From: a virus
Taxonomy: Duplodnaviria; Caudoviricetes
IMG/VR virus record: IMGVR_UViG_3300013101_000011
Coordinates: 1 to 54,173 of that record
Length of the DNA: 54,173 nt
Direction: 5' to 3' (one strand)
The notes beneath the pieces are model-generated. The model had not been told where the DNA came from and did not search any database. It was given only the letters and a program-made list of their open reading frames with translations. Positions within the stretch are counted from its first letter, which is position 1, and each line of letters begins with the position of its first letter. A program made the translations under genes and the position numbers. This document shows, in pieces, positions 4,693 to 40,602 of the stretch.

Positions 4693-4982
4693 TTGTTCTG
4701 TCTCCGTATGATGGCATCTAAACATGCCTGCATGTTATCGCGCCCTGCTGGGTTCGCGGTGTGAAAATTAATTTCTGGAAGTGGGATCATGTTATCGTAC
4801 ACTGCCATTTCGATCCAACACATAATATCGTATCCTGTGGGCTCCCCAACATCGCCCAAATCATGGTCGAGCGACAAATGGGTTATCTTGCCCTCCTTGA
4901 GGACCTTTAATGTTTCTCGCGCATTCCAAGTCTGTTCCCAGCCCTCGGGCGCAATTCTAATGTCGTCTACGTAAAGTTTCAT
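4689..4982 (-). CDS. Cyclic-phosphate-processing receiver-like (cREC) domain protein
   Basis: MKLYVDDIR...SLDHDLG...TGYD...HTANPAG motifs; start reassigned to 4982. Confidence 0.75.
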   Translation of the reverse strand: MKLYVDDIRIAPEGWEQTWNARETLKVLKEGKITHLSLDHDLGDVGEPTGYDIMCWIEMAVYDNMIPLPEINFHTANPAGRDNMQACLDAIIRRQNK

Positions 4983-5622
4983 CTTATATAGAGTGCTATC
5001 AATAGTGGTGAAAAGGATATCCCAACATACATAAAAACTCCAAATAAGAAAGCTATAATGCATGCCGGCGCGCAGGCTTTGCCATTATATGCGAACCAAA
5101 CAAACGATTTTACAATTTCAACCATCATGTCAGTCTCGTTATTGTTTGGTAATCTGTGTCGATGCTTTGACCAACTTCCAATTTGAGCACGTGGTCTTCC
5201 CAAAACCAACGTCCGTCCATTGTAGATCCTTTAACAGTTTTTACACTCGTTAACCAATCTGGCGCAGTGCTTTCGTCAAACCATACCGGTTTCCTGTTGG
5301 GGATAAATCTTGGAATTCTCTCAAACGTTTTCACATCAATCCATTTGTATCCATTAAGTAAAACACCCACCAAACTACAGCGAGTAATCCTGAACAAAAA
5401 ACTGCAAAATTAAAGTCGTCAGTCTCGTCGCGATCTGCTGCTTCGACTATTGCTATCCATAATATGCTTGTCATCCTAATATCTCACGGATGGCCAGTCC
5501 GTACAAACATAGGACAAGCCCCAGGAGGCTCGCCGTTAATAACCAAAGCGGAGCCGCTGCAGAAACATGACGCCAATCTATTCGATTGTATAATTCGAAA
5601 ACCACATTAGACAAAATCATTT

Positions 5623-8707: not shown

Positions 8708-8784
8708 TGGAGCCCTCGAGGAGATTTGAACTCCTACTTGGTCGGTTAGGAACCGACCGCACTATCCATTTATGCTACAAGGGC
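8708..8784 (-). tRNA. tRNA-Arg(CCU)
   Basis: Cloverleaf; anticodon arm GTCGG-TTCCTAA-CCGAC; encoded CCA. Confidence 0.9.
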
Positions 8785-8792
8785 ATTTTGTT

Positions 8793-8867
8793 TGGAGCTC
8801 TCTGTGAGAATTGAACTCACGTCACATCCTTACCAAGGACGTATAATTGCCATTATACTAAGAGAGC
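8793..8867 (-). tRNA. tRNA-Thr(GGU)
   Basis: Anticodon arm CGTCC-TTGGTAA-GGATG; encoded CCA. Confidence 0.9.
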
Positions 8868-8868
8868 G

Positions 8869-9240
8869 TTATTTAAATCCGTATTCTTGTTTGGTGTTGA
8901 TTAAAACTTGATGGCCGATCCTGCTCACTAACCATAATGTTTGCAGATCGTGTTCTTGCAAGGAAACTGTGTTCCCCATTGACAGCTTCATTCCGCCTGG
9001 GTAATATTTTCTGTCGTAGTGACTTTCTTGGCCGATCTTTCCATAAAGCGTTCCGCCACGGACATCTTTTGTTAGTTCGATAACTATTCGTTTTAGCCTA
9101 GGCTTAATAACTATATCGCCATGCCAGGGATTGTTTATTTCCTCGGGAGTCATTTTAAGGATAGCAATCAATATGTCTTGTTCGAGAACTTGATCCTCGA
9201 ATTCATGTATTTTGCCATCTTCCCATTTAATAATTGACAT
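8869..9240 (-). CDS. Hypothetical protein within tRNA operon 1
   Basis: 123-aa ORF after a TAAATA motif. Confidence 0.6.
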   Translation of the reverse strand: MSIIKWEDGKIHEFEDQVLEQDILIAILKMTPEEINNPWHGDIVIKPRLKRIVIELTKDVRGGTLYGKIGQESHYDRKYYPGGMKLSMGNTVSLQEHDLQTLWLVSRIGHQVLINTKQEYGFK

Positions 9241-9445
9241 ACAAGTATTTATCTTTCATAATTGGTACCACTGCCTTTAAAGCTGCCAATTGTTCTCGTT
9301 GTTTCTTCCTACGATTCCGTTTACTTTTTATGTTTCGTCCTTTCCATGTAGGTGTAATACTATGACAATTAGGGCAGAGAATTCTTAAATTTTCTCGGCG
9401 ATGATCTTCATAATCGAACCTCGTCGTTGTTATGATATTTATCAA
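9227..9445 (-). pseudogene. HNH endonuclease remnant, C-terminal part only
   Basis: ENLRILCPNCHSITPTWKGRN present; N-terminal CxxC and HNH start missing; no good start codon. Confidence 0.6.
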
Positions 9446-9470
9446 GGTTCGAATAGAGGATGATTTTAAT

Positions 9471-9561
9471 TGGTACTAGGCGGAGGAATCGAACCTGCAC
9501 CAGGGGGTTATCTGCCCAATCCGTCTATAAAACGGCCCACTCGCCACGAGTTACGCCTAGC
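9471..9561 (-). tRNA. tRNA-Ile(UAU), atypical, long variable arm
   Basis: Acceptor GCTAGGC/GCCTAGT; loop TT-TAT-AG; ~20-nt variable region; TTCGATT; ACCA. Confidence 0.7.
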
Positions 9562-9569
9562 ATTATTAT

Positions 9570-9668
9570 TGAGCCCTCCGGGGGTATCGAACCCTCTAGA
9601 ATATTCCTTCTCCCAATTCAACTATGCCGGCTGTTGAACGTGGCGCATTACCTTTATGCTAGAAGGGC
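9570..9668 (-). ncRNA. tRNA-like RNA with extended non-canonical anticodon arm
   Basis: Acceptor, D arm and TTCGATA T loop present; centre is a TTCAAC-N10-GTTGAA hairpin; no CCA. Confidence 0.5.
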
Positions 9669-9675
9669 ATTAATT

Positions 9676-9751
9676 TGGTGGGCCCCCGGAGACTTGAACT
9701 CCGCCCTAGCGATTATGAGTCGCTTGCTCTCGCCCGGTGAGCTATGGGCCC
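9676..9751 (-). tRNA. tRNA-Ile2-type (CAU)
   Basis: Anticodon arm AGCGA-CTCATAA-TCGCT, like the bacterial lysidine tRNA-Ile2; CCA. Confidence 0.85.
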
Positions 9752-9760
9752 AAATATAAC

Positions 9761-9818
9761 AGGATAGAATTTTATTTGATTAAAAGTCAAGTTGGTTTTG
9801 AGTTGCTGTTACTATCCT
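9761..9818 (-). ncRNA. Small RNA carrying a tRNA-Lys(UUU)-like anticodon stem-loop
   Basis: AGGATAG...CTATCCT closing stem, ACAGCAA segment, TTGA-CTTTTAA-TCAA hairpin. Confidence 0.5.
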
Positions 9819-9823
9819 AAAAC

Positions 9824-9898
9824 TGGTAGTGACGGTTGGAATTGAACCAACGACATGCTCCTTATGAAGGAGGGGCTTAACCATTCAGCTTCGTCACC
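9824..9898 (-). tRNA. tRNA-Met(CAU)
   Basis: Loop TTCATAA within CTCC/GGAG stem; CCA. Confidence 0.85.
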
Positions 9899-10119
9899 AT
9901 AATTCTGGCTCGTTTTTATAGAGGTGAACACTCCTCCTATTTCTTGCCATCGTCGTATAACTTTTTAATAGCTAGCCACGATGTTAAATCTCTCCTTGTC
10001 GTTTTAATAACAATTGGGTTTTTAGCAGTTTTTAAGATCTCTCTATACAGTTTGATCTTTGAAACTATCTCATAATAATCTACACTAATTGCTCATTCAT
10101 AATACACTCTCCTTTAAAA

Positions 10120-10275
10120 ATTGTATTCGTGCGCGGCCCGGGTCACAACCCCCGGTCTGTCTCTCAGTTAATGTTGGTGGCCACCAACATAAATCGATGC
10201 TAGGTGTACAGTGTCGTCAACCGTGTACTAAGGTCAGTTCATACCGTTATCTCAGCTTGCCGCGCCGAATACAAT
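10120..10275 (-). ncRNA. Structured ncRNA, copy A of the AGCTGAGA/palindrome family
   Basis: ATTGTATTCG/CGAATACAAT terminal stem; 20-nt palindrome at 10171-10190; GGTTGTGA-loop hairpin; covaries with copy B. Confidence 0.65.
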
Positions 10276-10283
10276 CTTATAAA

Positions 10284-10437
10284 ATTGTATTGATCCTGCG
10301 CCTCAGTCACAACCCTGAGATCTCGCAGTCTATGTCGGCGGCCGCCGACATAAGTGGTAGCTATGTGCGTGGAATGATCATTAACGGCCTTTTCAACAAT
10401 CAGCGCCACTTTCTCAGCTTACGCAGGTCAATACAAT
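10284..10437 (-). ncRNA. Structured ncRNA, copy B
   Basis: ATTGTATTGA/TCAATACAAT terminal stem; 22-nt palindrome at 10331-10352; CTCAG-GGTTGTGA-CTGAG hairpin. Confidence 0.65.
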
Positions 10438-10618
10438 CTTAATAACTTATTCTACAAAATTCACTTTCGTTTACTTGTTGCCAATATACTGTTCCTACTT
10501 CCGCATTTATCATATAAACCGTGCTGTCTATTTGAGTAACAATGTCTCCTAATAGACTGATAAAATACATGAATTGATCTACTGTTATACATTCAATCAT
10601 TTCCTTTTCCTCTAAATT

Positions 10619-10706
10619 TGGAGCCAACGGTCAGATTCGAACTGACGATGCCCTTTCGGATGAGGCTTACAAAGCCCCTGCATTCGACCGCTAATGCTAC
10701 GTTGGC
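10619..10706 (-). tRNA. tRNA-Thr(UGU), long variable arm
   Basis: GGGGC-TTTGTAA-GCCTC; variable arm with GAAA loop; CCA. Confidence 0.8.
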
Positions 10707-10710
10707 AAAA

Positions 10711-10856
10711 TTTATAGTGGCCTATTCTTCCTAGTCAATCCGTTTAAATATCTCTCCGCGATTCTCACCACCTGTATACGGGCCTGAGCTGGCACTTTGA
10801 GACCGACCTACGAGCTTTTGGTCATCCGCCGTGATCATCTTTCGATGCACTATAAA
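10711..10856 (-). ncRNA. Putative structured ncRNA
   Basis: TTTATAGTG/CACTATAAA terminal stem; internal CATC-GAAA-GATG hairpin; lies between tRNAs. Confidence 0.45.
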
Positions 10857-10858
10857 AT

Positions 10859-10934
10859 TGGCATCCCTAGAGAGATTCGAACTCCCATCTTTCGGCTTAG
10901 AAGGCCTAATGTTATCCAGTTGACTTATAGGGAC
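10859..10934 (-). tRNA. tRNA-Arg(UCU)
   Basis: Loop CTTCTAA; acceptor GTCCCTA/TAGGGAT; GCCA end. Confidence 0.85.
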
Positions 10935-10940
10935 ATAATT

Positions 10941-11016
10941 TGGTGCCGCAAGGAAGAGTCGAACTCCCGACCTGATGCTTACAAGGCAACTGCTCTACCA
11001 ACTGAGCTATTGCGGC
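10941..11016 (-). tRNA. tRNA-Thr(UGU)
   Basis: Canonical D arm; loop CTTGTAA; ACCA. Confidence 0.9.
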
Positions 11017-11017
11017 G

Positions 11018-11257
11018 TTATTCTATTATGACAGTTATGACTCCCGAGTTGCCCAATTTAATATTTGGATTCAGACTGTAGTCATATAGCAGTTGAATTA
11101 ATTCGTCTCGGATTACTCCGTGTCCAACGATAAATTCAGCTGTCTCTGTCTTTCCTGCTGTACGCACATCGCCTATAATTACTTCGGTTTGTCGTAAAGC
11201 ATCTTCTAGTTTGTTTCCATGGAAGTCGCGCTTTATCATACTTCTATTTATACTCAC
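11018..11257 (-). CDS. Stand-alone Smr-domain protein
   Basis: DFHG...A...FIVGHG...GNSGVITV matches Smr motifs. Confidence 0.7.
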   Translation of the reverse strand: MSINRSMIKRDFHGNKLEDALRQTEVIIGDVRTAGKTETAEFIVGHGVIRDELIQLLYDYSLNPNIKLGNSGVITVIIE

Positions 11258-11264
11258 TAATGTT

Positions 11265-11341
11265 TGGCTCCATTCAAAGGACTCGAACCTTTCGCGTGGT
11301 GATTAACAGTCACCCCCCATCACCAGGATGGGCCGAATGGA
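11265..11341 (-). tRNA. tRNA-Asn(GUU)
   Basis: GGTGA-CTGTTAA-TCACC; U1-A72, G73; CCA. Confidence 0.9.
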
Positions 11342-11540
11342 ATAAATTTGGTAGCTGCAATTCGGGATTCCAATTACGGTTAGGCAACCGACTAGCGGCG
11401 CTTTATAACCCTCGTATACTTTCCCCTAGCAACTTTCCAGGGTACGTATTATAAGCCGGTATTTGTTAGACGCTCATCAACGTCACCTTCTGTCTTCCCA
11501 AACAGTTAGGGAGGTTTCCCGGACCTCGGGAAATGTATTT

Positions 11541-11626
11541 TGGCTCCAGCGGTAGGGATCGAACCTACGCTCCCGGGGGAGTCTGCGCATTAACAGTGCG
11601 AAACATTACCTCTCTGCCACACTGGA
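11541..11626 (-). tRNA. tRNA-Asn(GUU), long variable arm
   Basis: CGCA-CTGTTAA-TGCG; CTCC/GGAG variable stem; flanked by a GTATTTTGG/CCAAAATAC inverted repeat. Confidence 0.8.
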
Positions 11627-11646
11627 CCAAAATACACTTACATCTA

Positions 11647-11760
11647 ATTTTATGACCTTGCCTATTTCTCCCTACAAATGTTACACAGGTCCTGCGACTC
11701 GAACGCTAAGGGCAGTAAACGACCACCCTGTCCACCTTGGAAAACCCGCATCATAAAAAT
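11647..11760 (-). ncRNA. Putative ncRNA with T-loop-like hairpin
   Basis: TTTTATGA/TCATAAAA terminal stem; GCG-TTCGAGT-CGC. Confidence 0.45.
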
Positions 11761-11893
11761 TAAATTTGGCGTCCCCGTTTATTTTTGTAGGGCAGGAACA
11801 AATACTCCCTAAATGGTTTTGGTATATGGGTAACAGAGGTGATCAACCTTAGCTTACATATACCGTTCGTCGCGACACTGTCCATCACAGTAT

Positions 11894-12008
11894 TAAATCA
11901 TCTTATTAACTACACTTTCCGGAATTGAACCGGCTTCTGCAGGTGCCCCACTTATCGTTCACGTCCTGGTAGCTACAACAGGATCAATGCAGTTAATAAG
12001 ATGATTTA
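11894..12008 (-). ncRNA. Long-stem RNA with T-loop hairpin overlapping the end of the ArfA-like ORF
   Basis: 18-bp perfect terminal inverted repeat, extendable with G-U pairs; CCGG-TTCAATT-CCGG. Confidence 0.55.
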
Positions 12009-12124
12009 GCCTTCTTGTCGTGTTTCCACTTACTCTTACCCTTACGGGAATAGTCCTTTTTACGATCTCGCATCGTAACAGATTTGTTATACTTGCGAGC
12101 ATGTTTTGCTACTAAGTTATTCAT
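11993..12124 (-). CDS. Small basic protein resembling ArfA-type ribosome rescue factors
   Basis: 43 aa MNNLVAKHARKYNKSVTMRDRKKDYSRKGKSKWKHDKKAKSSY; AAGGAG SD; below the ORF-track cutoff. Confidence 0.55.
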   Translation of the reverse strand: MNNLVAKHARKYNKSVTMRDRKKDYSRKGKSKWKHDKKAKSSY

Positions 12125-12321
12125 AACATTTCTCCTTTTAAAAAATTGTGCCGATGTATAGAGCCTCCCGTTTAAGAGCTTGACGCCCGTTCCCGAAGGG
12201 TATTCGAATGTACCACGGCTCGTACCTCGTTCAATTATCGCGTGGTTTTATTAGATCGCCAACTGTGCGACCACTTCCCGTTTCCCCAATTGGGTAAGGC
12301 GCTTACCACGTGCGCAGGGAT

Positions 12322-12397
12322 TGGTAGTTCCGGAAGGAATCTAACCCTCATTTCCCGGTAATCGGCCGGGCGTCTTAGACGTTAGACAGACGGAACT
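12322..12397 (-). tRNA. tRNA-Ile(GAU), atypical (C33, U37, T loop TTAGATT)
   Basis: Acceptor AGTTCCG/CGGAACT; CCCGG-CCGATTA-CCGGG; ACCA. Confidence 0.65.
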
Positions 12398-12405
12398 ATA
12401 AAATT

Positions 12406-12479
12406 TGGTTGCTGATAGTGGAATCGAACCACTGTCGGTAAGTTATCAGCTTACTGCTCTACCATTGAGCTAATCGGCA
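12406..12479 (-). tRNA. tRNA-Ile(GAU)
   Basis: GTAAG-CTGATAA-CTTAC; ACCA. Confidence 0.9.
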
Positions 12480-12556
12480 ATTGTGCTGGACTTGCTTTGG
12501 TCAGGATAGACCGTAGCCTTGTGTTGCCAGCATACACCTTTTTCTACATAATCAAT

Positions 12557-12568
12557 TGTTAAAGAACG
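12557..12568 (-). promoter_or_regulatory. boxA-like antitermination element
   Basis: CGTTCTTTAACA versus rrn boxA TGCTCTTTAACA; lies between the terminator and the first tRNA. Confidence 0.6.
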
Positions 12569-12596
12569 TTACACTTGTTTAGCAAGTGTGAGCCAT

Positions 12597-12631
12597 AAAA
12601 AAAGCCCGGGTTGCTTGCGCTTGCCGGGCTT
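12597..12631 (-). terminator. Attenuator-type intrinsic terminator of tRNA operon 1
   Basis: AAGCCCGGCAAGCGCAAGCAACCCGGGC-T7, 22 nt after the leader stop. Confidence 0.8.
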
Positions 12632-12653
12632 CTAGTATTTTATCTGTTAAGAC

Positions 12654-12740
12654 TTAAACTATCATACCCTCACGCGCACCAATAATATTTTTCATATTAT
12701 TAATTGTGGTCGTTCTTGTTATAATTGTTTCTGTGCTCAT
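12654..12740 (-). CDS. Leader peptide 1 (ANN-codon sensor), MSTETIITRTTTINNMKNIIGAREGMIV
   Basis: 19 of the first 20 codons start with A; ATG is 5 nt after GATAAATA; followed by a terminator and NNU-anticodon tRNAs. Confidence 0.8.
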   Translation of the reverse strand: MSTETIITRTTTINNMKNIIGAREGMIV

Positions 12741-12935
12741 GTGTTTATTTATCGCCTTTGTTAAATTTCGTTAAATTTCTTATCCTAAAACTTCGAGTGC
12801 CAGCTTATTCAAACGAGGACAATATATACCTCTTCGCTCTAATGCTATTTGTTCAGCTCGCAAATGATCGGTTCGCAATCAATAAGCTAGCACTCGATCT
12901 ATGTAGTATATATCCTTTGCGGATTATGTCTACCT

Positions 12936-13130
12936 TTATTTCTCCCAAACAGTAAAATCGTGTTCGACTTCGCTCGCGCCTGTTGTATGATGGATGCCGG
13001 GCAATTTCTGTTTTACCAGTTCCCGCGCCGCTTCTCCGGATTCAGCAATTACGATTGCTGTACCACGTTCGGTCTGCGACCATTGGTAACTAACAGCCCA
13101 TTTTCGAATTCTAGAATCTCGGGTATTCAC
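12936..13130 (-). CDS. Hypothetical protein
   Basis: 64-aa ORF in the gene tiling. Confidence 0.5.
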   Translation of the reverse strand: MNTRDSRIRKWAVSYQWSQTERGTAIVIAESGEAARELVKQKLPGIHHTTGASEVEHDFTVWEK

Positions 13131-15058: not shown

Positions 15059-16192
15059 TTAGAAGCGGAAGGTAAAACCTGCGCTACCACCCGTTTCATC
15101 GCCGCCACCGTCTGTGAAGACATTAGCGTTAACAAACCAACGGTCGGAAAGTGCGCCACCTACACCAAGTGCAAGAGCTTCCTGTCCGTCAAAGTAACCA
15201 ACACCAGCACCTGCTTGAACACCAACGTAATCAGTGTCATAGTGGATAGCTGTCATTGCTGCAACACCAGCGATACCTTTACGTAATGTACTGATATCGT
15301 TATCCAATCCATTTAAACGATCTTCGTGATCATCTAAGCGAACATCTTGTGCTTCGTTTTGCTCATACAAGTCGTTAATCTGACCGTCTTGGCGATCGTC
15401 AGTAATACCACGAGAGTTGATTGCTGCTGTATTAATTCCGATGTTCTCAGAGTTAGTAGCAATTTCACCGTCTTGGCGATCCTGGTCAGTCCAGAGGGCT
15501 GTATCTTCTGCTTCACGTGCATCGCGTTCTGCTTGGATATCTGCGATACGTTGCTGTGCTTCTGCAAGATCAGCGTCATAACGCGCAGTCGCTTCATCAA
15601 CGTCAGCTTGGATACGAGCTAATGATTCGGCTTCAGTCCGTGCAATGGCGCGAGAATCAACAACTCGATCATTGGTGATACGCGTCTGCTCTTCGCTTAA
15701 TATATCGGCTTGCAAACCTGCGTCAGCATTCGCGCGAGATAGTGCTTCGGCTTCAGTCCGTGCAATGGCGCGAGAATCAACAACTCGATCATTGGTGATA
15801 CGCGTCTGCTCTTCAGAATCTAAATTCTGTTGCAATGCTGCATCACCTGCTTGACGATCGCCGACCTCATCGGCTAATTCACCGTCTTGGCGAGCTTGGT
15901 CGAGAATAGCTGCATCAATTACAAGTTGAGCATCATTGCGCATTGCTGCTTCACGTGCATCTGTGTAGGCGTCATTGGCTGCATCACCGTCGGCGATATC
16001 AGTAACGGCTACGCCTGAATCAACAGGAAATGCACACTCAGAAATCACGTGAGTTTCGCCGTTATATTCAAACGATGTCTCCACGCATTCTGCGAGCTGT
16101 CCTGTTGGGTTACGTTCTAAAGCAAATGCCGAAATAGGCGCAGATGCAATAGATGCGGCAAAAATTACCGCGGTTAAGTTTTTCATTTTCAT
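15059..16192 (-). CDS. Trimeric autotransporter adhesin-like protein with YadA C-terminal anchor
   Basis: Signal peptide; coiled-coil stalk; GIAGVAAM...GVGYFDGQEALALG anchor with terminal Phe. Confidence 0.85.
   Translation of the reverse strand: MKMKNLTAVIFAASIASAPISAFALERNPTGQLAECVETSFEYNGETHVISECAFPVDSGVAVTDIADGDAANDAYTDAREAAMRNDAQLVIDAAILDQARQDGELADEVGDRQAGDAALQQNLDSEEQTRITNDRVVDSRAIARTEAEALSRANADAGLQADILSEEQTRITNDRVVDSRAIARTEAESLARIQADVDEATARYDADLAEAQQRIADIQAERDAREAEDTALWTDQDRQDGEIATNSENIGINTAAINSRGITDDRQDGQINDLYEQNEAQDVRLDDHEDRLNGLDNDISTLRKGIAGVAAMTAIHYDTDYVGVQAGAGVGYFDGQEALALGVGGALSDRWFVNANVFTDGGGDETGGSAGFTFRF
15626..15814. repeat. 69-bp exact direct repeat with 120-nt period in the YadA-like stalk
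   Basis: 15626-15694 equals 15746-15814; encodes EEQTRITNDRVVDSRAIARTEAE twice. Confidence 0.9.
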
Positions 16193-16297
16193 TTTTTGTT
16201 TCCTGGCCGATGGCCGTTGGGTTAGTTGCTTCTTCACTCAAAACTATAAGCTATTTTGAATAATTTTCAAACATATTTGGATTGGACAGAGTGTGTT

Positions 16298-23075: not shown

Positions 23076-23393
23076 CTAAATACTAAATGATTCGCCGCAA
23101 CCACATGAGGTCGCTTGCGGGTTTTTAAATTCCATTCCAGAATTAAAACCGTTAGTGACGAAATCAACTTCGAGTCCGTCGAGTAATAATAGTGATTTGG
23201 GGTCGACTACGATTGTTACTTCATTTTGAATAAATTCTACATCGTCAGGATTTTTTGTATCTGCAAATTCAACAACATAAGAATATCCGCCACACCCTGC
23301 GCCTGTAACACCGAACCGAATTCCAAGTCCTTTCCCGCGCTGGGTTATTTGTGATAGTATATGCTCTTCTGCTTTCTCTGTCAATGTAATCAT
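23076..23393 (-). CDS. iscA: A-type Fe-S cluster carrier protein (IscA/HesB)
   Basis: MITLTEKA...GCGGYSY...NP..CGCGESF; start reassigned to 23393. Confidence 0.9.
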   Translation of the reverse strand: MITLTEKAEEHILSQITQRGKGLGIRFGVTGAGCGGYSYVVEFADTKNPDDVEFIQNEVTIVVDPKSLLLLDGLEVDFVTNGFNSGMEFKNPQATSCGCGESFSI

Positions 23394-23421
23394 AATATTA
23401 TTTATGATAAATATTGTAGCA

Positions 23422-25991: not shown

Positions 25992-26860
25992 ATTCCTGTT
26001 CTATCTAGACGGGCATAATCGTTTTCCGGATAGTTTACCATTTCTTTACTAGTCGTTCCGCGGGACTGAGTTGGCGCTTGTATCGGCCTGTTTAATGCAA
26101 TCACATCTATGTCCTTTTTAATTGCAATGCTTAACATAATACCCCCTGGAAATCCTAATGTAAAGTTTTCCGAACCTATACGTTCGAAATATTTATTAAC
26201 TTCAAACACTGCATGTTGATAAAACGTATCTTTAATTGTGGAAACGGCAGCTCGATTAAGTATAAAGGCATACGGCCAGGTCATCATTGAACTTGCATGC
26301 CATTTACCCATTCCATGAGACATATCATACATTATTGGAATGTCTGCAAGATGAGCGTCTGCTTTAAACACTTCTATATTCCGTTGTGTCATTTCACCTA
26401 ATAGGCATTCTTGGTCTACATGATTCTCAAATATTGTATCAATTTGCCGTAGCACAACATAATCATATTCTAATATGTCTGGTCGATTTAGTAAATAATT
26501 GCAAGTCCACCATTGAGCTAGTCGTTTGCAACTAGCAGAATATTCATTCCTGTAATCTCTCCTAATTAATTTTTCGTATTCGGCAGATGTAAGTTTATTG
26601 CGGGTCAATGACGTAATACAAACGAAACCCATGTCATATGTTTCGGCCAGCATTTCTCCATAGGATAATTTGGCAACAGTTATGGGGCCAGCATCAAAAT
26701 AGTTGTGTAACGGATTCATCCCTGTTGCATTGTCCCATGTTGCAATTTCTTGTTTAGTTATTAGTGACGCTAAGTCTCGCGGCAGATCGGTACATAATTG
26801 ATTTTCATATTTGCCACCAAGTTTTCGCACCTGGCCGAACAGGCAATCTTTAATTTTCAT
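25988..26860 (-). CDS. Tandem paralog, possibly glycosyltransferase-like
   Basis: Same motifs; start reassigned to MKIKDC. Confidence 0.65.
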   Translation of the reverse strand: MKIKDCLFGQVRKLGGKYENQLCTDLPRDLASLITKQEIATWDNATGMNPLHNYFDAGPITVAKLSYGEMLAETYDMGFVCITSLTRNKLTSAEYEKLIRRDYRNEYSASCKRLAQWWTCNYLLNRPDILEYDYVVLRQIDTIFENHVDQECLLGEMTQRNIEVFKADAHLADIPIMYDMSHGMGKWHASSMMTWPYAFILNRAAVSTIKDTFYQHAVFEVNKYFERIGSENFTLGFPGGIMLSIAIKKDIDVIALNRPIQAPTQSRGTTSKEMVNYPENDYARLDRTGI

Positions 26861-26887
26861 GCATGTATTTATTGTATAAATATTGGT

Positions 26888-27880
26888 ATGGAAAAAATCA
26901 AAAAGGCTGTAATTGAAGTTTGCGGGTCCTGCAATTACTCTTGTCAAATGTGTCCGCAATCTGCGACACTAGGTGGAAGAGAAAAGGAATTCAAAAAGAA
27001 TATGCCACTCGCTACATTCAAAACAATACTAGACGAATTAAAGGCCGACCATGACCTACAGGAAATTTATTTAGAAGGTTCCGGTGAGCCTACAATGAAT
27101 AAGAAGCTACCGGATTATATTGCGTACGGAACTGAGCTAGGATTTAAAATGTCTTTCATTACCAACGGCACCGGCTTTACTGGACAGAAAATGAAAGACA
27201 TAATTGATGCTGGAATGCATTATGCCCGCATCAGCGTTATTGGTAGCACTCCGGAATTATATGCAGAGTGGATGCCGAATGCAGCTGGCAAGGATGAAGA
27301 TACACTTGAGGATATAATTGCCAACACTAATGAAACACTTGAATATATTAAATCCTCGGGAAGCAATGCGATCTTAGGATCGTATCATTTAATAACCGAC
27401 AATATGTTAGAGAAGGAACAGGTCCAACAATATAAAATGCATTGGGTTGATAGAGTCCCGGGTATCGCAGCTAACATCTGGCGTATGCATAATTGGTCAG
27501 GACAGTTGACTGGTGTTACATGGAGAGAAGGACACAAAATGAGAAGTTGCGGCCGACCAAATAGTCCTGACATTGTTATTAGAGCAGGCGGCATAGATGG
27601 CAAACACGCTGCGGTAGTTCCATGCTGCATGGTACTAGGACGAGACAGCGAAGCGGTCATGGGTCACCTTAGTGAAGATACAATTGCAGAAGTTTACAAC
27701 GGCGATGCTTATAATCACCTTCGCAAAATGCACGACGAACATAGATTCGATGAAATTAGTTATTGCAAGGATTGTGATATGTTATACGATGCTCCGGAGG
27801 CATTGGTGTGGAGTAACGCGGGCGCTGATTACAATACACTAACTGGTGGAATATTTGATATGAAAGAGTATAGGAAATAA
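26888..27880 (+). CDS. Radical SAM protein with SPASM/twitch domain
   Basis: CNYSCQMC, GEP, C-terminal PCC...CKDC; TATAAATA at 26875-26882. Confidence 0.9.
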   Translation: MEKIKKAVIEVCGSCNYSCQMCPQSATLGGREKEFKKNMPLATFKTILDELKADHDLQEIYLEGSGEPTMNKKLPDYIAYGTELGFKMSFITNGTGFTGQKMKDIIDAGMHYARISVIGSTPELYAEWMPNAAGKDEDTLEDIIANTNETLEYIKSSGSNAILGSYHLITDNMLEKEQVQQYKMHWVDRVPGIAANIWRMHNWSGQLTGVTWREGHKMRSCGRPNSPDIVIRAGGIDGKHAAVVPCCMVLGRDSEAVMGHLSEDTIAEVYNGDAYNHLRKMHDEHRFDEISYCKDCDMLYDAPEALVWSNAGADYNTLTGGIFDMKEYRK

Positions 27881-29999: not shown

Positions 30000-30085
30000 T
30001 GGTGGGCCACGAGGGACTCGAACCCTCACTCCTTTCGAAACTGGTACCTAAAACCAGCGCGTCTGCCAAATTCCGCCAGCAGCCC
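30000..30085 (-). tRNA. tRNA-Leu(UAG)
   Basis: CTGGT-TTTAGGT-ACCAG; long variable arm; ACCA. Confidence 0.9.
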
Positions 30086-30091
30086 GTTATT

Positions 30092-30601
30092 CTATTTATT
30101 TACTTTATGTCTAAGCCTATAATATCTGCCCTGACAGGCACTACAGCTTATTCCTAATTTTTTTGCCGCCTCACGTTTTCCTATTCTATCGCAAAGCTCT
30201 ATTAATTCTTTTGGATCCATTGCTGGCTTCCGGCCTCCGTTTTTTGCCTTCGCCCTATAAATTGGATCAGTAGCATATTTCGCGTTTAACGACTTAGACA
30301 AATTCTTTCGATGTTTGTCTGATTTTCCTTGTCCTATTCCACCCTTGCCGCCTACTTTCATATTATAACATTGTTGATCTTTTACCAGCTCTTCAGTTAC
30401 GATTTCGGCCTCTCTACTAAATGCTTCGTCTGCTGTCTCGAATCTTTCGAGTACTTCTCTTTTAAATTTTTTAGTTCCGTACTTTTTAATGGCTTGTAAC
30501 AGAGCTGTCCCGGAACCTTTGTAACACGAATTAGTTAATCCATGGACTCCGATATAATATTTCCCATTAATAAGATTGGTAGTTTTATATAAAATATGCA
30601 C
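30092..30601 (-). mobile_element. Free-standing GIY-YIG (Seg-like) homing endonuclease gene in tRNA operon 2
   Basis: LYKTTNLINGKYYIG, YKGSG, YN...GG motifs; C-terminal HTH. Confidence 0.8.
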
Positions 30602-30650
30602 ATATTTATTTATATGCCATTTACCAATCTTGTATCTTTACTATCAAATT

Positions 30651-30727
30651 TGGTACGCCCCAAGGGATTTGAACCCTCATCAGTCCGGGTAAAAGCCGGA
30701 GGTAATTGCCATTTATACGAAGGACGC
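30651..30727 (-). tRNA. tRNA-Lys(UUU), C38 variant
   Basis: TCCGG-CTTTTAC-CCGGA; ACCA. Confidence 0.85.
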
Positions 30728-30737
30728 ATTAAAAATT

Positions 30738-30813
30738 TGGTGGGTCCGGTCGGGATCGAACCGACGACCAGGAGGTTAAAAGCCAACTGCTCTACCAACT
30801 GAGCTACAGACCC
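30738..30813 (-). tRNA. tRNA-Lys(UUU), mismatched anticodon stem
   Basis: Host-like body; GTTGG-CTTTTAA-CCTCC. Confidence 0.85.
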
Positions 30814-30823
30814 AAATCTAATT

Positions 30824-30914
30824 TGGTGGGACGGGCAGGGTTCGAACCTGCAACGGTGTTATTCACACTCCGGATTAAAAGTCCGGTACCTTCAGCCACT
30901 TCGGTCACCGACCC
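30824..30914 (-). tRNA. tRNA-Lys(UUU), long variable arm
   Basis: CCGGA-CTTTTAA-TCCGG; GTGT/ACAC variable stem; ACCA. Confidence 0.8.
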
Positions 30915-30988
30915 ACATTCTGTGCAAAACGATTATTCGTTGTGCAAAACGTTTTTATTCTTCGGTAAACGTTACAAACCGATTAACT

Positions 30989-31065
30989 TGGTGGGACGCC
31001 CGGGATTTGAACCCGGATCAGCCTGGGTAAGAACCAGGGGTAATTGCCATTTATACGAACGACCC
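30989..31065 (-). tRNA. tRNA-Lys(CUU)
   Basis: CCTGG-TTCTTAC-CCAGG; ACCA. Confidence 0.85.
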
Positions 31066-31142
31066 AAATTTGGGGCAGTTTATTTTAACGGATTCACTAT
31101 CTCCGCCTAGGTCAAGTCTGCCAACAACCTAGCTTGCAAGTT

Positions 31143-31217
31143 TGGTGCTCCGACGGAGAATCGAACTCCGATCGCCGGGTTGAAAGCCCAGTGTTCTAAC
31201 CATTAAACTACCAGAGC
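31143..31217 (-). tRNA. tRNA-Glu(UUC)
   Basis: CTGGG-CTTTCAA-CCCGG; ACCA. Confidence 0.85.
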
Positions 31218-31223
31218 GTAGTT

Positions 31224-31376
31224 TGGTACCCAGGGCAGGAGTCGAACCTGCAAAACAATACGACTATTTCCAGAAACATTGTTACGGCCTTTCTGGTCAT
31301 ATCCGCTCACCCTCTGCTTATTCTTCAGAGGTCACCCCCTTCAGGGAGGGCCGCTTTGCCATTTGCGTACCCGGGC
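31224..31376 (-). ncRNA. Giant 153-nt tRNA-like RNA with Leu-like body and ambiguous anticodon
   Basis: Acceptor GCCCGGG/CCTGGGT, D arm, GCAGG-TTCGACT-CCTGC, ACCA; about 80-nt structured insert. Confidence 0.65.
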
Positions 31377-31383
31377 ATAAATT

Positions 31384-31466
31384 TGGTATGCGGAGAGGGA
31401 GTCGAACCCTCAAGGGCCTTGTTTCTAAAACAAGTAGGTGTACCAATTTCCATTAGCCACCCGCGC
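31384..31466 (-). tRNA. tRNA-Leu(UAG), short variable arm and enlarged D region
   Basis: CTTGT-TTTAGAA-ACAAG; ACCA. Confidence 0.75.
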
Positions 31467-31477
31467 ATAAATAAAAC

Positions 31478-31680
31478 GTTGTAACCGATAGCCAGGATTC
31501 TGTCTTGGACAGTCATTCATCTATTGGCCGTTACCCGAGCATCATAGGATGGAACTTACCTAGCTCTGTTTACGTTGCAAACCCCTTTCGTATATCGCAG
31601 TACCAACGACCGAAGTCTCCTGCACGTTCCGGGCCTGTCCTGAGCTTCCTCACCTTACGGTGCGACTGCCTGGTTACAAC
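31478..31680 (-). ncRNA. rnpB: Minimal RNase P RNA-like gene, about 200 nt
   Basis: P1 GTTGTAACC/GGTTACAAC; CAGTCGC; GAGGAAGCTCAGGA pairs with TCCTGGCT (P4 with bulged U); TAGATGAATGACTGTCCAAGACAGAA 3' conserved block. Confidence 0.85.
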
Positions 31681-31771
31681 TAACTCTAAATCTTATACGG
31701 TTCCTATATCACCCATCGTCACCGTCAACCATTGAGGTAATGAGTAGGTTAGTACCCACGACCTGTTTGCC

Positions 31772-31851
31772 TGGTGTTACTGACGGGGATCGAACCCGCA
31801 TTTTCCTGGGTGAAAACCAAGCTGCCTAGTCCAAGTTTAGCAGACAGTAAC
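31772..31851 (-). tRNA. tRNA-Glu(UUC)
   Basis: CTTGG-TTTTCAC-CCAGG; ACCA. Confidence 0.85.
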
Positions 31852-31870
31852 ATAATTCTTTTGTACAATT

Positions 31871-31944
31871 TGGTGTGTCCCACGAGAATCAAACTCGTTC
31901 CTAAAGGGCCACAACCTCTAATGCTATCACTACACCAAGGACAC
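31871..31944 (-). tRNA. tRNA-His(GUG), atypical (A73, no G-1)
   Basis: AGAGG-TTGTGGC-CCTTT; ACCA. Confidence 0.7.
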
Positions 31945-31968
31945 TTTAAATTGTACTATAATTTACTT

Positions 31969-32044
31969 TGGGGTGACGTACGGGGTTCGAACCCGTTCCG
32001 ACTGAATCACAATCAGCCATGCTTCCAAGTACACCTACGTCACC
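31969..32044 (-). tRNA. tRNA-His(GUG)
   Basis: G-1/C73; GCTGA-TTGTGAT-TCAGT; CCA. Confidence 0.9.
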
Positions 32045-32071: not shown

Positions 32072-32103
32072 AAAAAAACCCGACTTGCTTTCGCTGCCGG
32101 GTT
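32072..32103 (-). terminator. Attenuator-type intrinsic terminator of tRNA operon 2
   Basis: AACCCGGCAGCGAAAGCAAGTCGGG-T7; its 5' arm can alternatively pair with leader segment 32158-32169. Confidence 0.8.
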
Positions 32104-32134
32104 CAGTGTAAATCTTTTGTTAGAAGGAAACTAT

Positions 32135-32221
32135 CTAAATAGTCGTTCCTTCCGCCAACACGGAACCCGTACATGATTTCTCATGTAATAAATGTTCGAG
32201 TTTTAGTGTCAGTGTGTTCAT
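32135..32221 (-). CDS. Leader peptide 2 (Leu/Lys/Glu/His sensor), MNTLTLKLEHLLHEKSCTGSVLAEGTTI
   Basis: Codons 6-15 are all L/K/E/H; ATG is 5 nt after GATAAATA; same length as leader 1. Confidence 0.8.
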   Translation of the reverse strand: MNTLTLKLEHLLHEKSCTGSVLAEGTTI

Positions 32222-32336
32222 ATGTTTATTTATCTCTTTTTTAATATTTCGTTAATTTTCTTGTTCAAAAATAAAAAGTTCTCTGTTGGACTGAGCTCCA
32301 ACATTTAATCCGGTCGCAACGTTACGGAAAGAAAAA

Positions 32337-32410
32337 TGGTACTCGGACCAGGTTGAGGGTCTGGATATTAGGAACAAAGTCCCTGCTCTACTCACTTGAG
32401 CTATCCGAGT
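32337..32410 (-). ncRNA. tRNA-like RNA with non-canonical anticodon and T loops
   Basis: Perfect acceptor ACTCGGA/TCCGAGT plus ACCA and a D arm; short anticodon loop; T loop lacks TTC. Confidence 0.6.
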
Positions 32411-32420
32411 ATAAACTGTT

Positions 32421-37074: not shown

Positions 37075-37150
37075 TGGGGGAATGGCCGGGACTCGAACCC
37101 GGGACCGGCGGAGTTAAAAGCCGCTGCTCTGCCAACTGAGCTACCAAACC
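37075..37150 (-). tRNA. tRNA with UUA anticodon (ochre-suppressor-like), mismatched acceptor stem
   Basis: 76 nt; canonical numbering gives GCGGC-TT[TTA]AC-TCCGC; U-U at 3:70 and 4:69; C73; CCA. Confidence 0.65.
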
Positions 37151-40137: not shown

Positions 40138-40524
40138 CTAATCCTCGAATTTAATCTTGCGGCCGAGTTCCCAACCCTCAGGTATATCATCAGTTATTCT
40201 TATTTTCTTACTCTTCTTTTCTGCGTTCGAAAAGATCCACCTTGTTCCGAATTGTGAATTTCCTTCGCCTGCTTGATATACTGAGTTGAGTGCTCCGACC
40301 ATTGCTCTTGTCTCCGCGAGCGTTTCGCTGCCCGCGACTGCATTAAACGTTGCCGTCGAGAGATAATTTTGAATCGTTGAATCAGTTGTAATCATAGTAG
40401 GATATAATTCCTCTATGTTATTATAATCTGCTAACGCTTCACCGTTTGCAACAGGCGCATCGGATACCAGGTACCGATCGTCGCCAACCTTGTTTTCAAT
40501 TTTATATAAAGTTATTTTGTGCAT
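40138..40524 (-). CDS. Degenerate Seg/GIY-YIG-related protein
   Basis: LYKIEN N-terminus and GEGNSQFGTRWI...EGWELGR tail; no intact YIG. Confidence 0.4.
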   Translation of the reverse strand: MHKITLYKIENKVGDDRYLVSDAPVANGEALADYNNIEELYPTMITTDSTIQNYLSTATFNAVAGSETLAETRAMVGALNSVYQAGEGNSQFGTRWIFSNAEKKSKKIRITDDIPEGWELGRKIKFED

Positions 40525-40602
40525 ATAGTTATTTATGACAAGTTCGATATAGTCGAACTTTTTTCTATCAAGTCGTACCCTCGAACCGACTGTATTTTCC
40601 TA

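Follow-up and report, generated by a model that had tools for sequence, protein, structure and literature searches.

A codon block that mirrors a downstream tRNA array in an uncultured phage: a probable transcription attenuator and its relatives

The attenuators of amino-acid operons (trpL, hisL, thrL, ilvL, leuL, pheL) combine a short open reading frame (ORF) that carries regulatory codons with a terminator and a mutually exclusive antiterminator, and the stalled ribosome provides the signal. In the pheM-pheST operon of E. coli a leader peptide with cognate codons controls the synthetase for one amino acid. T-box riboswitches sense the state of a specific tRNA and choose between terminator and antiterminator before translation-related genes. 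The locus described here resembles these systems. It lies in the IMG/VR virus record IMGVR_UViG_3300013101_000011 (Caudoviricetes), which was analysed as a complete record of 54,173 bases (the window). An ORF of 28 codons on the minus strand (12740..12654; termed leader 1) precedes an array of 12 tRNA genes on the same strand (8708..12479; termed array 1). Leader 1 is probably a ribosome-mediated transcription attenuator that switches the tRNA array on when the codons of that array are decoded slowly.

Leader 1 has the short ORF, regulatory codons, terminator, exclusive antiterminator and presumed ribosome stall signal of the amino-acid operon attenuators and, as in thrL and ilvL, several amino acids are read together. 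It differs in that it is phage-borne and would regulate tRNAs, not biosynthetic enzymes; its codons mirror the downstream anticodons down to AGA, ATA and ATG; its stop codon is situated in the antiterminator loop; and a boxA-like signal follows the terminator. The Rfam families Thr_leader (RF00506) and Trp_leader (RF00513) gave 17.1 bits each, below their gathering scores of 55 and 41, and an Rfam scan of the whole window shows tRNA alone at the gathering score. With pheM-pheST leader 1 would share the control of a translation component by a leader with cognate codons for the same codon family, but there the product is one amino acid's synthetase and here it is phage tRNA arrays for four to seven amino acids. 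The T-box differs from leader 1 in that it binds uncharged tRNA directly via a specifier codon and needs neither a ribosome nor an ORF; no T-box match was found in the window at the Rfam gathering score, or at E<=10 in positions 12480-12960. The leaderless polycysteine short ORFs of mycobacteria (bioRxiv 10.1101/834739) are reported to be sensing ORFs without a conventional 5′ leader or Shine-Dalgarno sequence. In this they are similar to leader 1, whose ATAAATA-N5-ATG spacing, taken by itself, suggests a leaderless ORF, but they sense cysteine for downstream protein genes. Full-text literature searches, which covered articles outside subscription journals and without supplementary files, gave no description of leader-peptide attenuation of tRNA genes. 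The kind of mechanism, leader-peptide attenuation, is already known; what is new is that the regulated product would be tRNA arrays, that the codon block copies the array, that the system is phage-borne and that a boxA-like signal comes after the terminator.

The leader 1 ORF reads ATG AGC ACA GAA ACA ATT ATA ACA AGA ACG ACC ACA ATT AAT AAT ATG AAA AAT ATT ATT GGT GCG CGT GAG GGT ATG ATA GTT TAA, i.e. 28 codons and a TAA stop, with the product MSTETIITRTTTINNMKNIIGAREGMIV. Codons 5–20 are 16 ANN codons in a row, as was described in an earlier reading of the sequence (the original prediction), and ANN codons make up 18 of the 19 codons at positions 2–20. In 57 long ORFs of the same phage the ANN share is 30.8% (p=9e-9 for leader 1 against that usage). 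When the 57 bases of the block were shuffled 100,000 times, 18 ANN codons were never reached (0/100,000) and a run of 16 occurred at a frequency of 1e-5. The two alternative frames over the block have 5/17 and 8/17 ANN codons. Thus local base composition, which the original prediction had named as an explanation that would overturn it, does not account for the ANN run.

Codons 2–20 (12681..12737, minus strand) are the putative regulatory codons, and 16 of these 19 are decoded by array-1 tRNAs, compared with an expected 22.8% (p=2.6e-8); 16 array-cognate codons appeared in 2e-5 of the same shuffles. The cognate codons are those for Thr, Ile (five, including ATA), Asn (three), AGA and ATG, and their decoders are Ile-GAU, Asn-GUU, Thr-UGU, Thr-GGU, Arg-UCU, the two CAU tRNAs and Ile-UAU. 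AGC, GAA and AAA are non-cognate. The match is at the level of codons: Arg is AGA in the block and CGT in the structural 3′ part of the ORF. Compared with the second tRNA array of the window (array 2, below), 2/19 codons are cognate, which is the chance level. Two parts of the original prediction are supported, namely that leader 1 is a leader-peptide attenuator ahead of tRNA genes and that it would respond to more than one amino-acid or codon family.

Array 1 consists of 12 tRNAs interspersed with small ORFs, in the order Ile-GAU, an aberrant GAU copy, Asn x2, Thr-UGU, Arg-UCU, Thr-UGU, CAU x2, Ile-UAU, Thr-GGU and Arg-CCU. ARAGORN detects 10 of these and Rfam adds those at 9827-9898 (CAU) and 12325-12397; the ARAGORN tRNAs at 9471-9561 and 11265-11341 are missed by Rfam. 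With both programs combined, U36 is found in 12/12, as had been predicted, and A37 in 11/12. Two Ile-GAU genes had also been predicted; one is normal, and the second copy (12325-12397) shows an atypical anticodon loop CCGAUUA (C33, U37) and an odd T-loop.

An intrinsic terminator, with the stem GAAGCCCGG / CCGGGCUU and a U-run, is located at 12597..12632 (minus strand; −18.7 kcal/mol alone), 117 nucleotides (nt) before the tRNA-Ile gene that starts the array at 12479. Leader 1 therefore has a short upstream ORF, a regulatory codon block tied to the product (tRNA), and a terminator before the first gene. The predicted antiterminator 5′ strand (region 2, UGCGCGUGAGGGU, 12666..12678) ends 9 nt before the stop codon. 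Region 3 (GCCCGGCAAGCGCA, 12616..12629) can pair with region 2, or with region 4 as the terminator 5′ arm; GCCCGGCAAGCGCA comprises the 5′ arm and the loop of the terminator. The predicted antiterminator duplex has −16.9 kcal/mol, compared with −9.9 +/- 2.7 in shuffles (p=0.017). The GGGT..TAGT/ACTA..GCCC pairing that the original prediction had proposed is part of this larger duplex, and the duplex is weaker than that of the second leader of the window, as had been stated, although only slightly (−18.6 kcal/mol, p=0.012, for leader 2). Minimum free energy (MFE) folds also predict a hairpin between codons 10–16 and ..AUAUUAUUGGUGCGCGU (12672..12713), a candidate region 1:2 pairing that would tie up the 5′ half of the antiterminator strand. 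The whole-leader fold gives z=−4.4 for the leader 1 transcript and z=−6.3 for leader 2, and each is more stable than all 200 of its shuffles. With a ribosome masked on codons 9–17, the leader 1 antiterminator is predicted to form at a stage when the 3′ arm of the terminator has yet to be transcribed. With a ribosome at the stop codon, which masks the 3′ part of region 2, it does not form and the terminator is the predicted fold. In silico, the antiterminator of leader 1 is thus exclusive with the terminator and dependent on the position of the ribosome.

A sigma-70-like promoter, TAGACA-16 nt-TATACT (12905..12932, minus strand), was found upstream by a consensus scan (10/12 matches), and a similar stretch, GTAGACATAA..ACTACA, lies upstream of leader 2 (read directly). 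Between promoter and leader 1 is a predicted structured RNA of 105 nt (12793..12897, minus strand), closed by a 17-bp stem that encloses three hairpins; the fold of 12905-12780 has −39.9 kcal/mol (z=−4.4) and 0/200 shuffles are as stable. There is no Rfam match to 12793-12897. An alignment of leaders 1 and 2 displays a common block, AAGAAAWTTAACGAAAT..GATAAATAAACAY (12741..12781 in leader 1, minus strand), which includes ATAAATA 5 nt before the ATG. The combination ATAAATA-N5-ATG is present at 8 sites in the window compared with 0.33 expected, and 0/100 shuffles reach 8. The sites are 9238-9252, 11237-11251, 12738-12752, 23391-23405, 26858-26872, 32219-32233 and 40522-40536 on the minus strand and 26876-26890 on the plus strand, and all 8 begin an ORF, i.e. 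the two leaders and six ORFs of 73–330 codons; none of these 8 ORFs has a Shine-Dalgarno sequence. The ATAAATA motif is similar to what we take to be the T4 late promoter, and its position 5 nt before the ATG suggests that leaderless or nearly leaderless mRNAs would be made. Two of the copies are divergent and overlapping (26858-26890).

A paralogous unit (leader 2) is present at 32072..32234 on the minus strand. It has the ATAAATA-N5-ATG context and a 28-codon ORF at 32221-32135 (MNTLTLKLEHLLHEKSCTGSVLAEGTTI), and its strands are R1 (32212-32197), R2 (CGGGUUC, 32169-32163), R3 (GAACCCG, 32104-32098) and R4 with a U-run (32084-32072). Array 2 follows at 30000..32043 (minus strand) with His x2, Glu x2, Lys-CUU, Lys-UUU x3 and Leu-UAG. 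Leaders 1 and 2 show a column identity of 71%, the same start context, the same length of 28 codons and homologous terminators. The codon block of leader 2 is CTG ACA CTA AAA CTC GAA CAT TTA TTA CAT GAG AAA. In leader 2, 8/14 codons are cognate to array 2 (p=1e-3) and 3/14 to array 1, the chance level. In the alignment, the codon block is exactly where the two leaders differ, and each block leans towards the array behind it. It is likely that the window has two paralogous attenuators, each guarding one tRNA array.

The window encodes a T4 NrdC.11-type nucleotidyltransferase with metagenomic relatives at 58%–76% identity, and an alignment of 33 relatives was used to retrieve 80 metagenome loci. 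A scan of these nucleotidyltransferase-linked loci for an ORF, a terminator and a tRNA array, made without use of a motif, gave 55 candidates; leader 1 was ranked first and a locus termed L010 second. Of the arrays of 7 or more tRNAs that lie outside the window (L002, L010, L033, L023, L039), only L010 has a significant leader. L010 is from a metagenomic phage whose nucleotidyltransferase is 49% identical to that of the window. Its order is a TTGACA-17-TATAAT promoter, a 28-codon ORF (MTNLNLKLKHLELHEQCKGSLSEDVKPF), a GGGTTCG/CGAACCC pairing, a terminator, and the tRNAs His, Leu, Glu, Glu, Leu, Lys, Leu, Lys, Glu, Lys, Leu and His. ATAAATA sits 20 nt upstream here instead of 5 nt. The leader codons of L010 are cognate to its own array at 11/16 positions (p=3e-5). 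Between L010 and leader 2 six of codons 4–15 differ, and 5 of these 6 positions stay within L/K/E/H in both; the inner hairpin and the terminator stem are altered by paired substitutions (read directly). It is thus composition, length and structure that are conserved and not the peptide sequence.

A family pattern, GGGTTC-N45-70-GAACCC-N12-24-GGGTTTTTT, was derived from leader 2 and L010. In IMG/VR it is present in 111 stretches, and 49 of these have at least two tRNAs that start within 1.5 kb downstream. In a cellular control (one genome per prokaryotic species) there were at least 119 matches; among the matches listed, three have a tRNA downstream, and in 61/119 the first strand is a tRNA T-arm that is followed by a terminator. 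The non-redundant tRNA-linked copies have, in 40/41, an ORF of 20–80 codons with its stop in the R2-R3 loop, and in 35 of 41 the R2-R3 helix is extended by at least two pairs. The pair that flanks the fixed core covaries (AU 20, CG 9, GU 7, unpaired 2, n=38), and where the terminator stem varies, 96% of it is paired, with 47 double changes. The reading frame of GGGTTC differs between families, which is expected of an RNA signal and not of a peptide signal.

The match of leader to array was scored for 36 distinct leaders with at least four tRNAs downstream, and 11/36 match their own array at p<0.01. Among these are L191 (21/25, 1e-7) and L197 (20/25, 8e-8). To give examples of sequences, MRTNTTNMMNLTLNVVNITLCNIRPSEGS.. 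precedes Asn, Ile, Arg, Leu, Asn, Val, Ile, Cys, Thr, Leu and Leu (21/25, p=1e-7), MKRIAYILVSSLTTTSRIGEGTFCSDFGRNN.. precedes Thr, Cys, Asn, Phe, Ser, Arg, Gly, Ile and others (21/33, p=1e-3), and ..LLNILAVVVAVDLLWADAEDML.. precedes Asp, Glu, Val, Leu, Ala, Met and Trp (20/39, p=2e-3). For six families, with one representative each, the pairing of leaders with their own arrays is the best of 720 permutations, and the mean match is 0.66 with the own array compared with 0.36 off the diagonal. A codon block that is conserved and tracks the regulated genes is therefore found for leader 2 (in L010) and for other families. A second, looser pattern was modelled on leader 1 (GAGGGT..AGCCC..GGGCTTTTTT); 7 of its 115 matches have tRNAs downstream, and there is no leader 1 ortholog among them. 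The codon match is significant in three of the six distinct cases. The leaders found with this pattern have QVQQNNQNNQ before Gln, Asn and Asn, SSSHSYCYSSH before Ser x4, Cys and His, and KIWFKKFK before Phe, Lys and Trp.

Folding was predicted for 14 family members. The stop codon is 15–25 nt after the first strand and 21–32 nt before the second; the probability that R2 is paired with the codon region before R3 emerges is 0.48–0.98; and masking of a stalled ribosome always gives the predicted antiterminator. The best-supported reading is that leader 1 is a tRNA-supply attenuator from a family that is widespread in uncultured phages. No cultured relative was found for any leader family searched, and the match for L191 is to an uncultured 634-kb record only (LR745206.1, 80%).

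Some members of the wider set deviate. One locus (L003 1370-1555, from the same record as L002; nucleotidyltransferase 40% identical) combines a strong promoter with an ORF of 37 codons and a terminator system of three strands. The ORF uses 19 kinds of amino acid and precedes 28 tRNAs and a tmRNA. Its stop codon abuts the first strand, the geometry differs, the codon match is not significant on the scored part, and the logic may differ from that of the family. L188, L098, L106, L165 and about 20 more have leaders of about 50 codons with conserved ..SDRTPE.. and ..GF.EG.GYA ends, and the same three-strand terminator, followed by a protein gene and then by broad tRNA arrays. Their codon match is not significant, and they may encode a conserved small protein or act as a sensor of translation in general.

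In leader 1 the terminator is followed by a second hairpin (12589-12571) and then by a boxA-like sequence, TAACGTTCTTTAACAAT (12571-12555; whole element 12555..12589, minus strand), identified at the sequence level. The same 17-mer follows the L010 terminator (L010 ~5213-5231). It is also present in 4 of 12 other IMG/VR matches (L084, L087, L094, L095), which are unrelated phage contigs, and there it is found after a sigma-70-like promoter and before tRNA genes. Leader 2 does not have the boxA-like signal. A hairpin followed by GCTCTTTAACAATTT in the rrnB P2 leader is what we take to be the boxB/boxA signal of Nus antitermination, and the boxA label is used in this sense. The likeness is that the leader 1 terminator is followed by a hairpin and GTTCTTTAACAATT, and the E. 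coli rrnB P2 leader, in the version printed in PMC10803263, displays a hairpin and then GCTCTTTAACAATTT; TAACGTTCTTTAACAAT is almost the same as the stretch behind that hairpin. The difference is that the leader 1 signal is downstream of an attenuator and before phage tRNA genes, and the likeness is one of sequence. Polymerases that have passed the attenuator may be made processive over the untranslated array by this candidate Nus-type signal.

The proposed process is as follows. RNA polymerase would start at the upstream promoter and transcribe the 28-codon ORF and then the intrinsic terminator. If translation is smooth, the ribosome would reach the stop codon and cover or separate the antiterminator strands, the terminator would form, and the array would be off; the region 1:2 pairing, together with the terminating ribosome that keeps the antiterminator strands apart, would maintain this off state. 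If the ribosome stalls on the Thr, Ile, Asn, AGA or ATG codons, region 2 would be free to pair with the emerging 5′ arm of the terminator, and with the antiterminator formed, polymerase would pass the boxA-like signal into the 12 tRNA genes. Since the regulatory codons are read by the downstream tRNAs, this would constitute a negative feedback loop on decoding capacity. The array would be made when the supply of host and phage tRNAs for its codons runs short, and possible causes of a shortage are a mismatch in codon usage, loss of host tRNAs in infection, or cleavage by a host nuclease. We infer from the features above that the ORF is translated, that slow decoding is the direction in which the switch turns on, and that tRNA shortage is the physiological trigger.

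Several points weigh against this interpretation. Neither leader 1 nor leader 2 has a Shine-Dalgarno sequence at normal spacing, and it is the ATAAATA-N5-ATG context, common to six longer ORFs, that suggests translation of leader ORF 1. In leader 1 the canonical GGGTTC strand is replaced, so its antiterminator is a predicted one, and the region 1:2 duplex is not significant in leader 1 (p=0.18; p=0.02 in leader 2). Two ATAAATA motifs lie within array 1 (at 11251 and 9252), and as possible internal promoters they could allow transcription without passage through the attenuator. No leader 1 ortholog was found in the searches of phage records, of IMG/VR with the motif, with the flanking proteins, or with the second pattern. 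In the wider family, the three strands are fixed by the pattern, and pairs within them are therefore no evidence of covariation. The significance level of p<0.01 is not reached by 25/36 leaders; these are mostly leaders of about 50 codons whose arrays by themselves serve at least half of codon usage, a situation in which the codon-match test has little power. Three of the six distinct second-pattern cases are likewise not significant. In most family members the stop is 15–25 nt beyond region 2, so that a terminating ribosome leaves this strand uncovered. In many of them the MFE fold without a ribosome already prefers the antiterminator; basal read-through could thus be high and the off state kinetic.

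This geometry is the ground for an inverse or coupling logic, by which completed translation of the leader is needed for read-through, and the arrays are on only while translation works or form a bistable positive loop. Besides the uncovered region 2, the stop of L003 lies beside the first strand (read directly), so that a terminating ribosome would favor the antiterminator there. However, a ribosome at the leader 1 stop masks the 3′ part of region 2 and the predicted fold is the terminator, the stop is conserved in the middle of the R2-R3 loop as fits a ribosome that keeps the strands apart, and a positive loop leaves the close mirroring of the array by the codons unexplained. This logic is very improbable. 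That there is no regulation at all, and that leader 1 is a chance ORF in an A-rich spacer beside an ordinary terminator or insulator duplicated with its promoter, is exceedingly improbable; the lack of a normal ribosome-binding site and the identity of the leader 1 copies in two metagenomes would agree with it, but not the shuffle tests, the codon blocks, which are exactly where the paralogues diverge and which each fit the array behind them, the preservation of ORF length and composition in L010, the 40/41 related copies with an ORF that ends in the loop, or the own-array pairing that is the best of 720.

The remaining alternatives concern what is sensed. In the original prediction the sensed unit was the t6A37/U36 class: leader 1 would report a defect common to the ANN decoders, i.e. 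loss of t6A37 or a nuclease that recognizes U36/t6A37, and induce replacement tRNAs. The 18/19 ANN codons and the presence of U36 in 12/12 and A37 in 11/12 tRNAs are in line with this, and if the 21 tRNAs (16 of them ANN decoders) are dealt randomly, an all-ANN array 1 has P=0.006, or 0.05 if they are dealt by amino-acid families. The leader 1 codons, however, follow the identity of the downstream tRNAs (16/19), and so do those of leader 2, L010 and other families, which do not follow a modification class and mirror mixed arrays, e.g. Asn/Ile/Arg/Leu/Val/Cys/Thr, Ser/Cys/His, Gln/Asn and Phe/Lys/Trp. Array 2 contains four Lys tRNAs, also ANN decoders, alongside those for Glu, His and Leu; of the 18 ANN codons of leader 1, a single one is for Lys and a single one for Ser-AGY; and PHROG and Pfam scans of 30 window ORFs show no tRNA-repair or t6A genes near the arrays. 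The array-cognate share of the ANN codons (16/18, compared with 74% expected for ANN generally) is not discriminating. Loss of t6A or a nuclease aimed at ANN decoders would slow the leader 1 codons and could induce the array, so that the class idea is unnecessary rather than refuted, and we consider it highly unlikely. A sensor of amino-acid starvation of the thr/ilv type, which reads the charging of Thr, Ile and Asn tRNAs and for which the tRNA output is secondary, has an equally low probability. A leader cannot tell an uncharged from a missing tRNA, the composition is like that of the Thr/Ile-rich thr leader, and the weak, sub-threshold Rfam Thr_leader similarity (17.1 bits, E=1.1) spans exactly 12595-12742. 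But the operon has no biosynthetic enzyme, and extra tRNA does not ease an amino-acid shortage; AGA, ATA and ATG match the Arg-UCU, Ile-UAU/CAU and Met tRNAs by codon, with CGT for Arg in the structural part; and other leaders track odd tRNA sets such as Phe/Lys/Trp.

It is also conceivable, but unlikely, that the attenuators are counter-defence sensors and that each array is matched to the tRNAs removed by a host anticodon nuclease or another tRNA-depleting defence. The leader would then fire only on tRNA cutting and release a burst of replacement tRNAs. If this were true, the all-U36/A37 array of leader 1 would mark a host activity aimed at ANN decoders, and leader sequences across phages could serve as a catalogue of host defences that target tRNAs.

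The leaders bear on the question of why phages carry tRNA genes and how these are used. A leader that copies its array codon by codon implies that the production of phage tRNAs follows demand, with decoding speed as the feedback signal, and is not constitutive. With such leaders, the codons that a phage expects to be in short supply in its host could be read from sequence alone. The attenuators could also act as natural, codon-specific reporters of the supply of tRNAs, and could reveal the activity of anticodon nucleases or the depletion of tRNAs. That they recur in dozens of contigs from uncultured phages suggests that a common principle of regulation exists which model phages in culture have not revealed.

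No close relative of the window was found among 50,697 cultured or deposited phage records. Megablast and blastn searches of these with both leaders and array 1 gave only isolated tRNA matches or chance matches. The exact leader 1 motif has 0 matches in IMG/VR, and the flanking proteins (an NT5C-like protein and a 292-aa ORF) have no relatives there. Contigs of two sediment metagenome runs (X1, X2) match the window without any difference across leader 1, and X3 and X4 carry only fragments. No RNA run was among those listed for the locus. Because the X1 and X2 copies are identical in sequence, they offer no population variation at leader 1 to use as a test.

Several tRNAs of the window are unusual. 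Every tRNA in the window encodes its CCA end. Four tRNAs of 86–91 nt on the minus strand (Ile-UAU 9471-9561, Thr-UGU 10619-10706, Asn-GUU 11541-11626, Lys-UUU 30824-30914) have an additional stem-loop in the variable region, a feature uncommon in the Ile, Thr, Asn and Lys classes. A tRNA-like element with a 3-nt anticodon loop is directly upstream of leader 2 (32340-32415, minus strand), and in L010 an element of this kind (~4866-4950) is upstream of the promoter of the leader. A Lys-UUU-like tRNA with the anticodon UUA (37075-37150, minus strand) is ochre-suppressor-like and has two acceptor-stem mismatches. The stop codon of leader 1 is TAA, and in-frame read-through would take the ribosome across the terminator. 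A very basic 43-codon ORF within array 1 (11993-12124, minus strand) has a strong AAGGAG site and a Pfam DUF7230 match (E=2e-11).

Nearly all genes of the window are on the minus strand, and small ORFs are numerous. Besides the nucleotidyltransferase, the window encodes an ATP-dependent DNA ligase and a weak SegE-like GIY-YIG match. A 392-aa ORF at 15059-16237 (minus strand) shows a C-terminal YadA-like membrane-anchor domain (E=2e-8), and a gene for a radical-SAM/SPASM protein (26888-27880) is among the few on the plus strand. Both are unexpected in a region that is otherwise like one of early genes.

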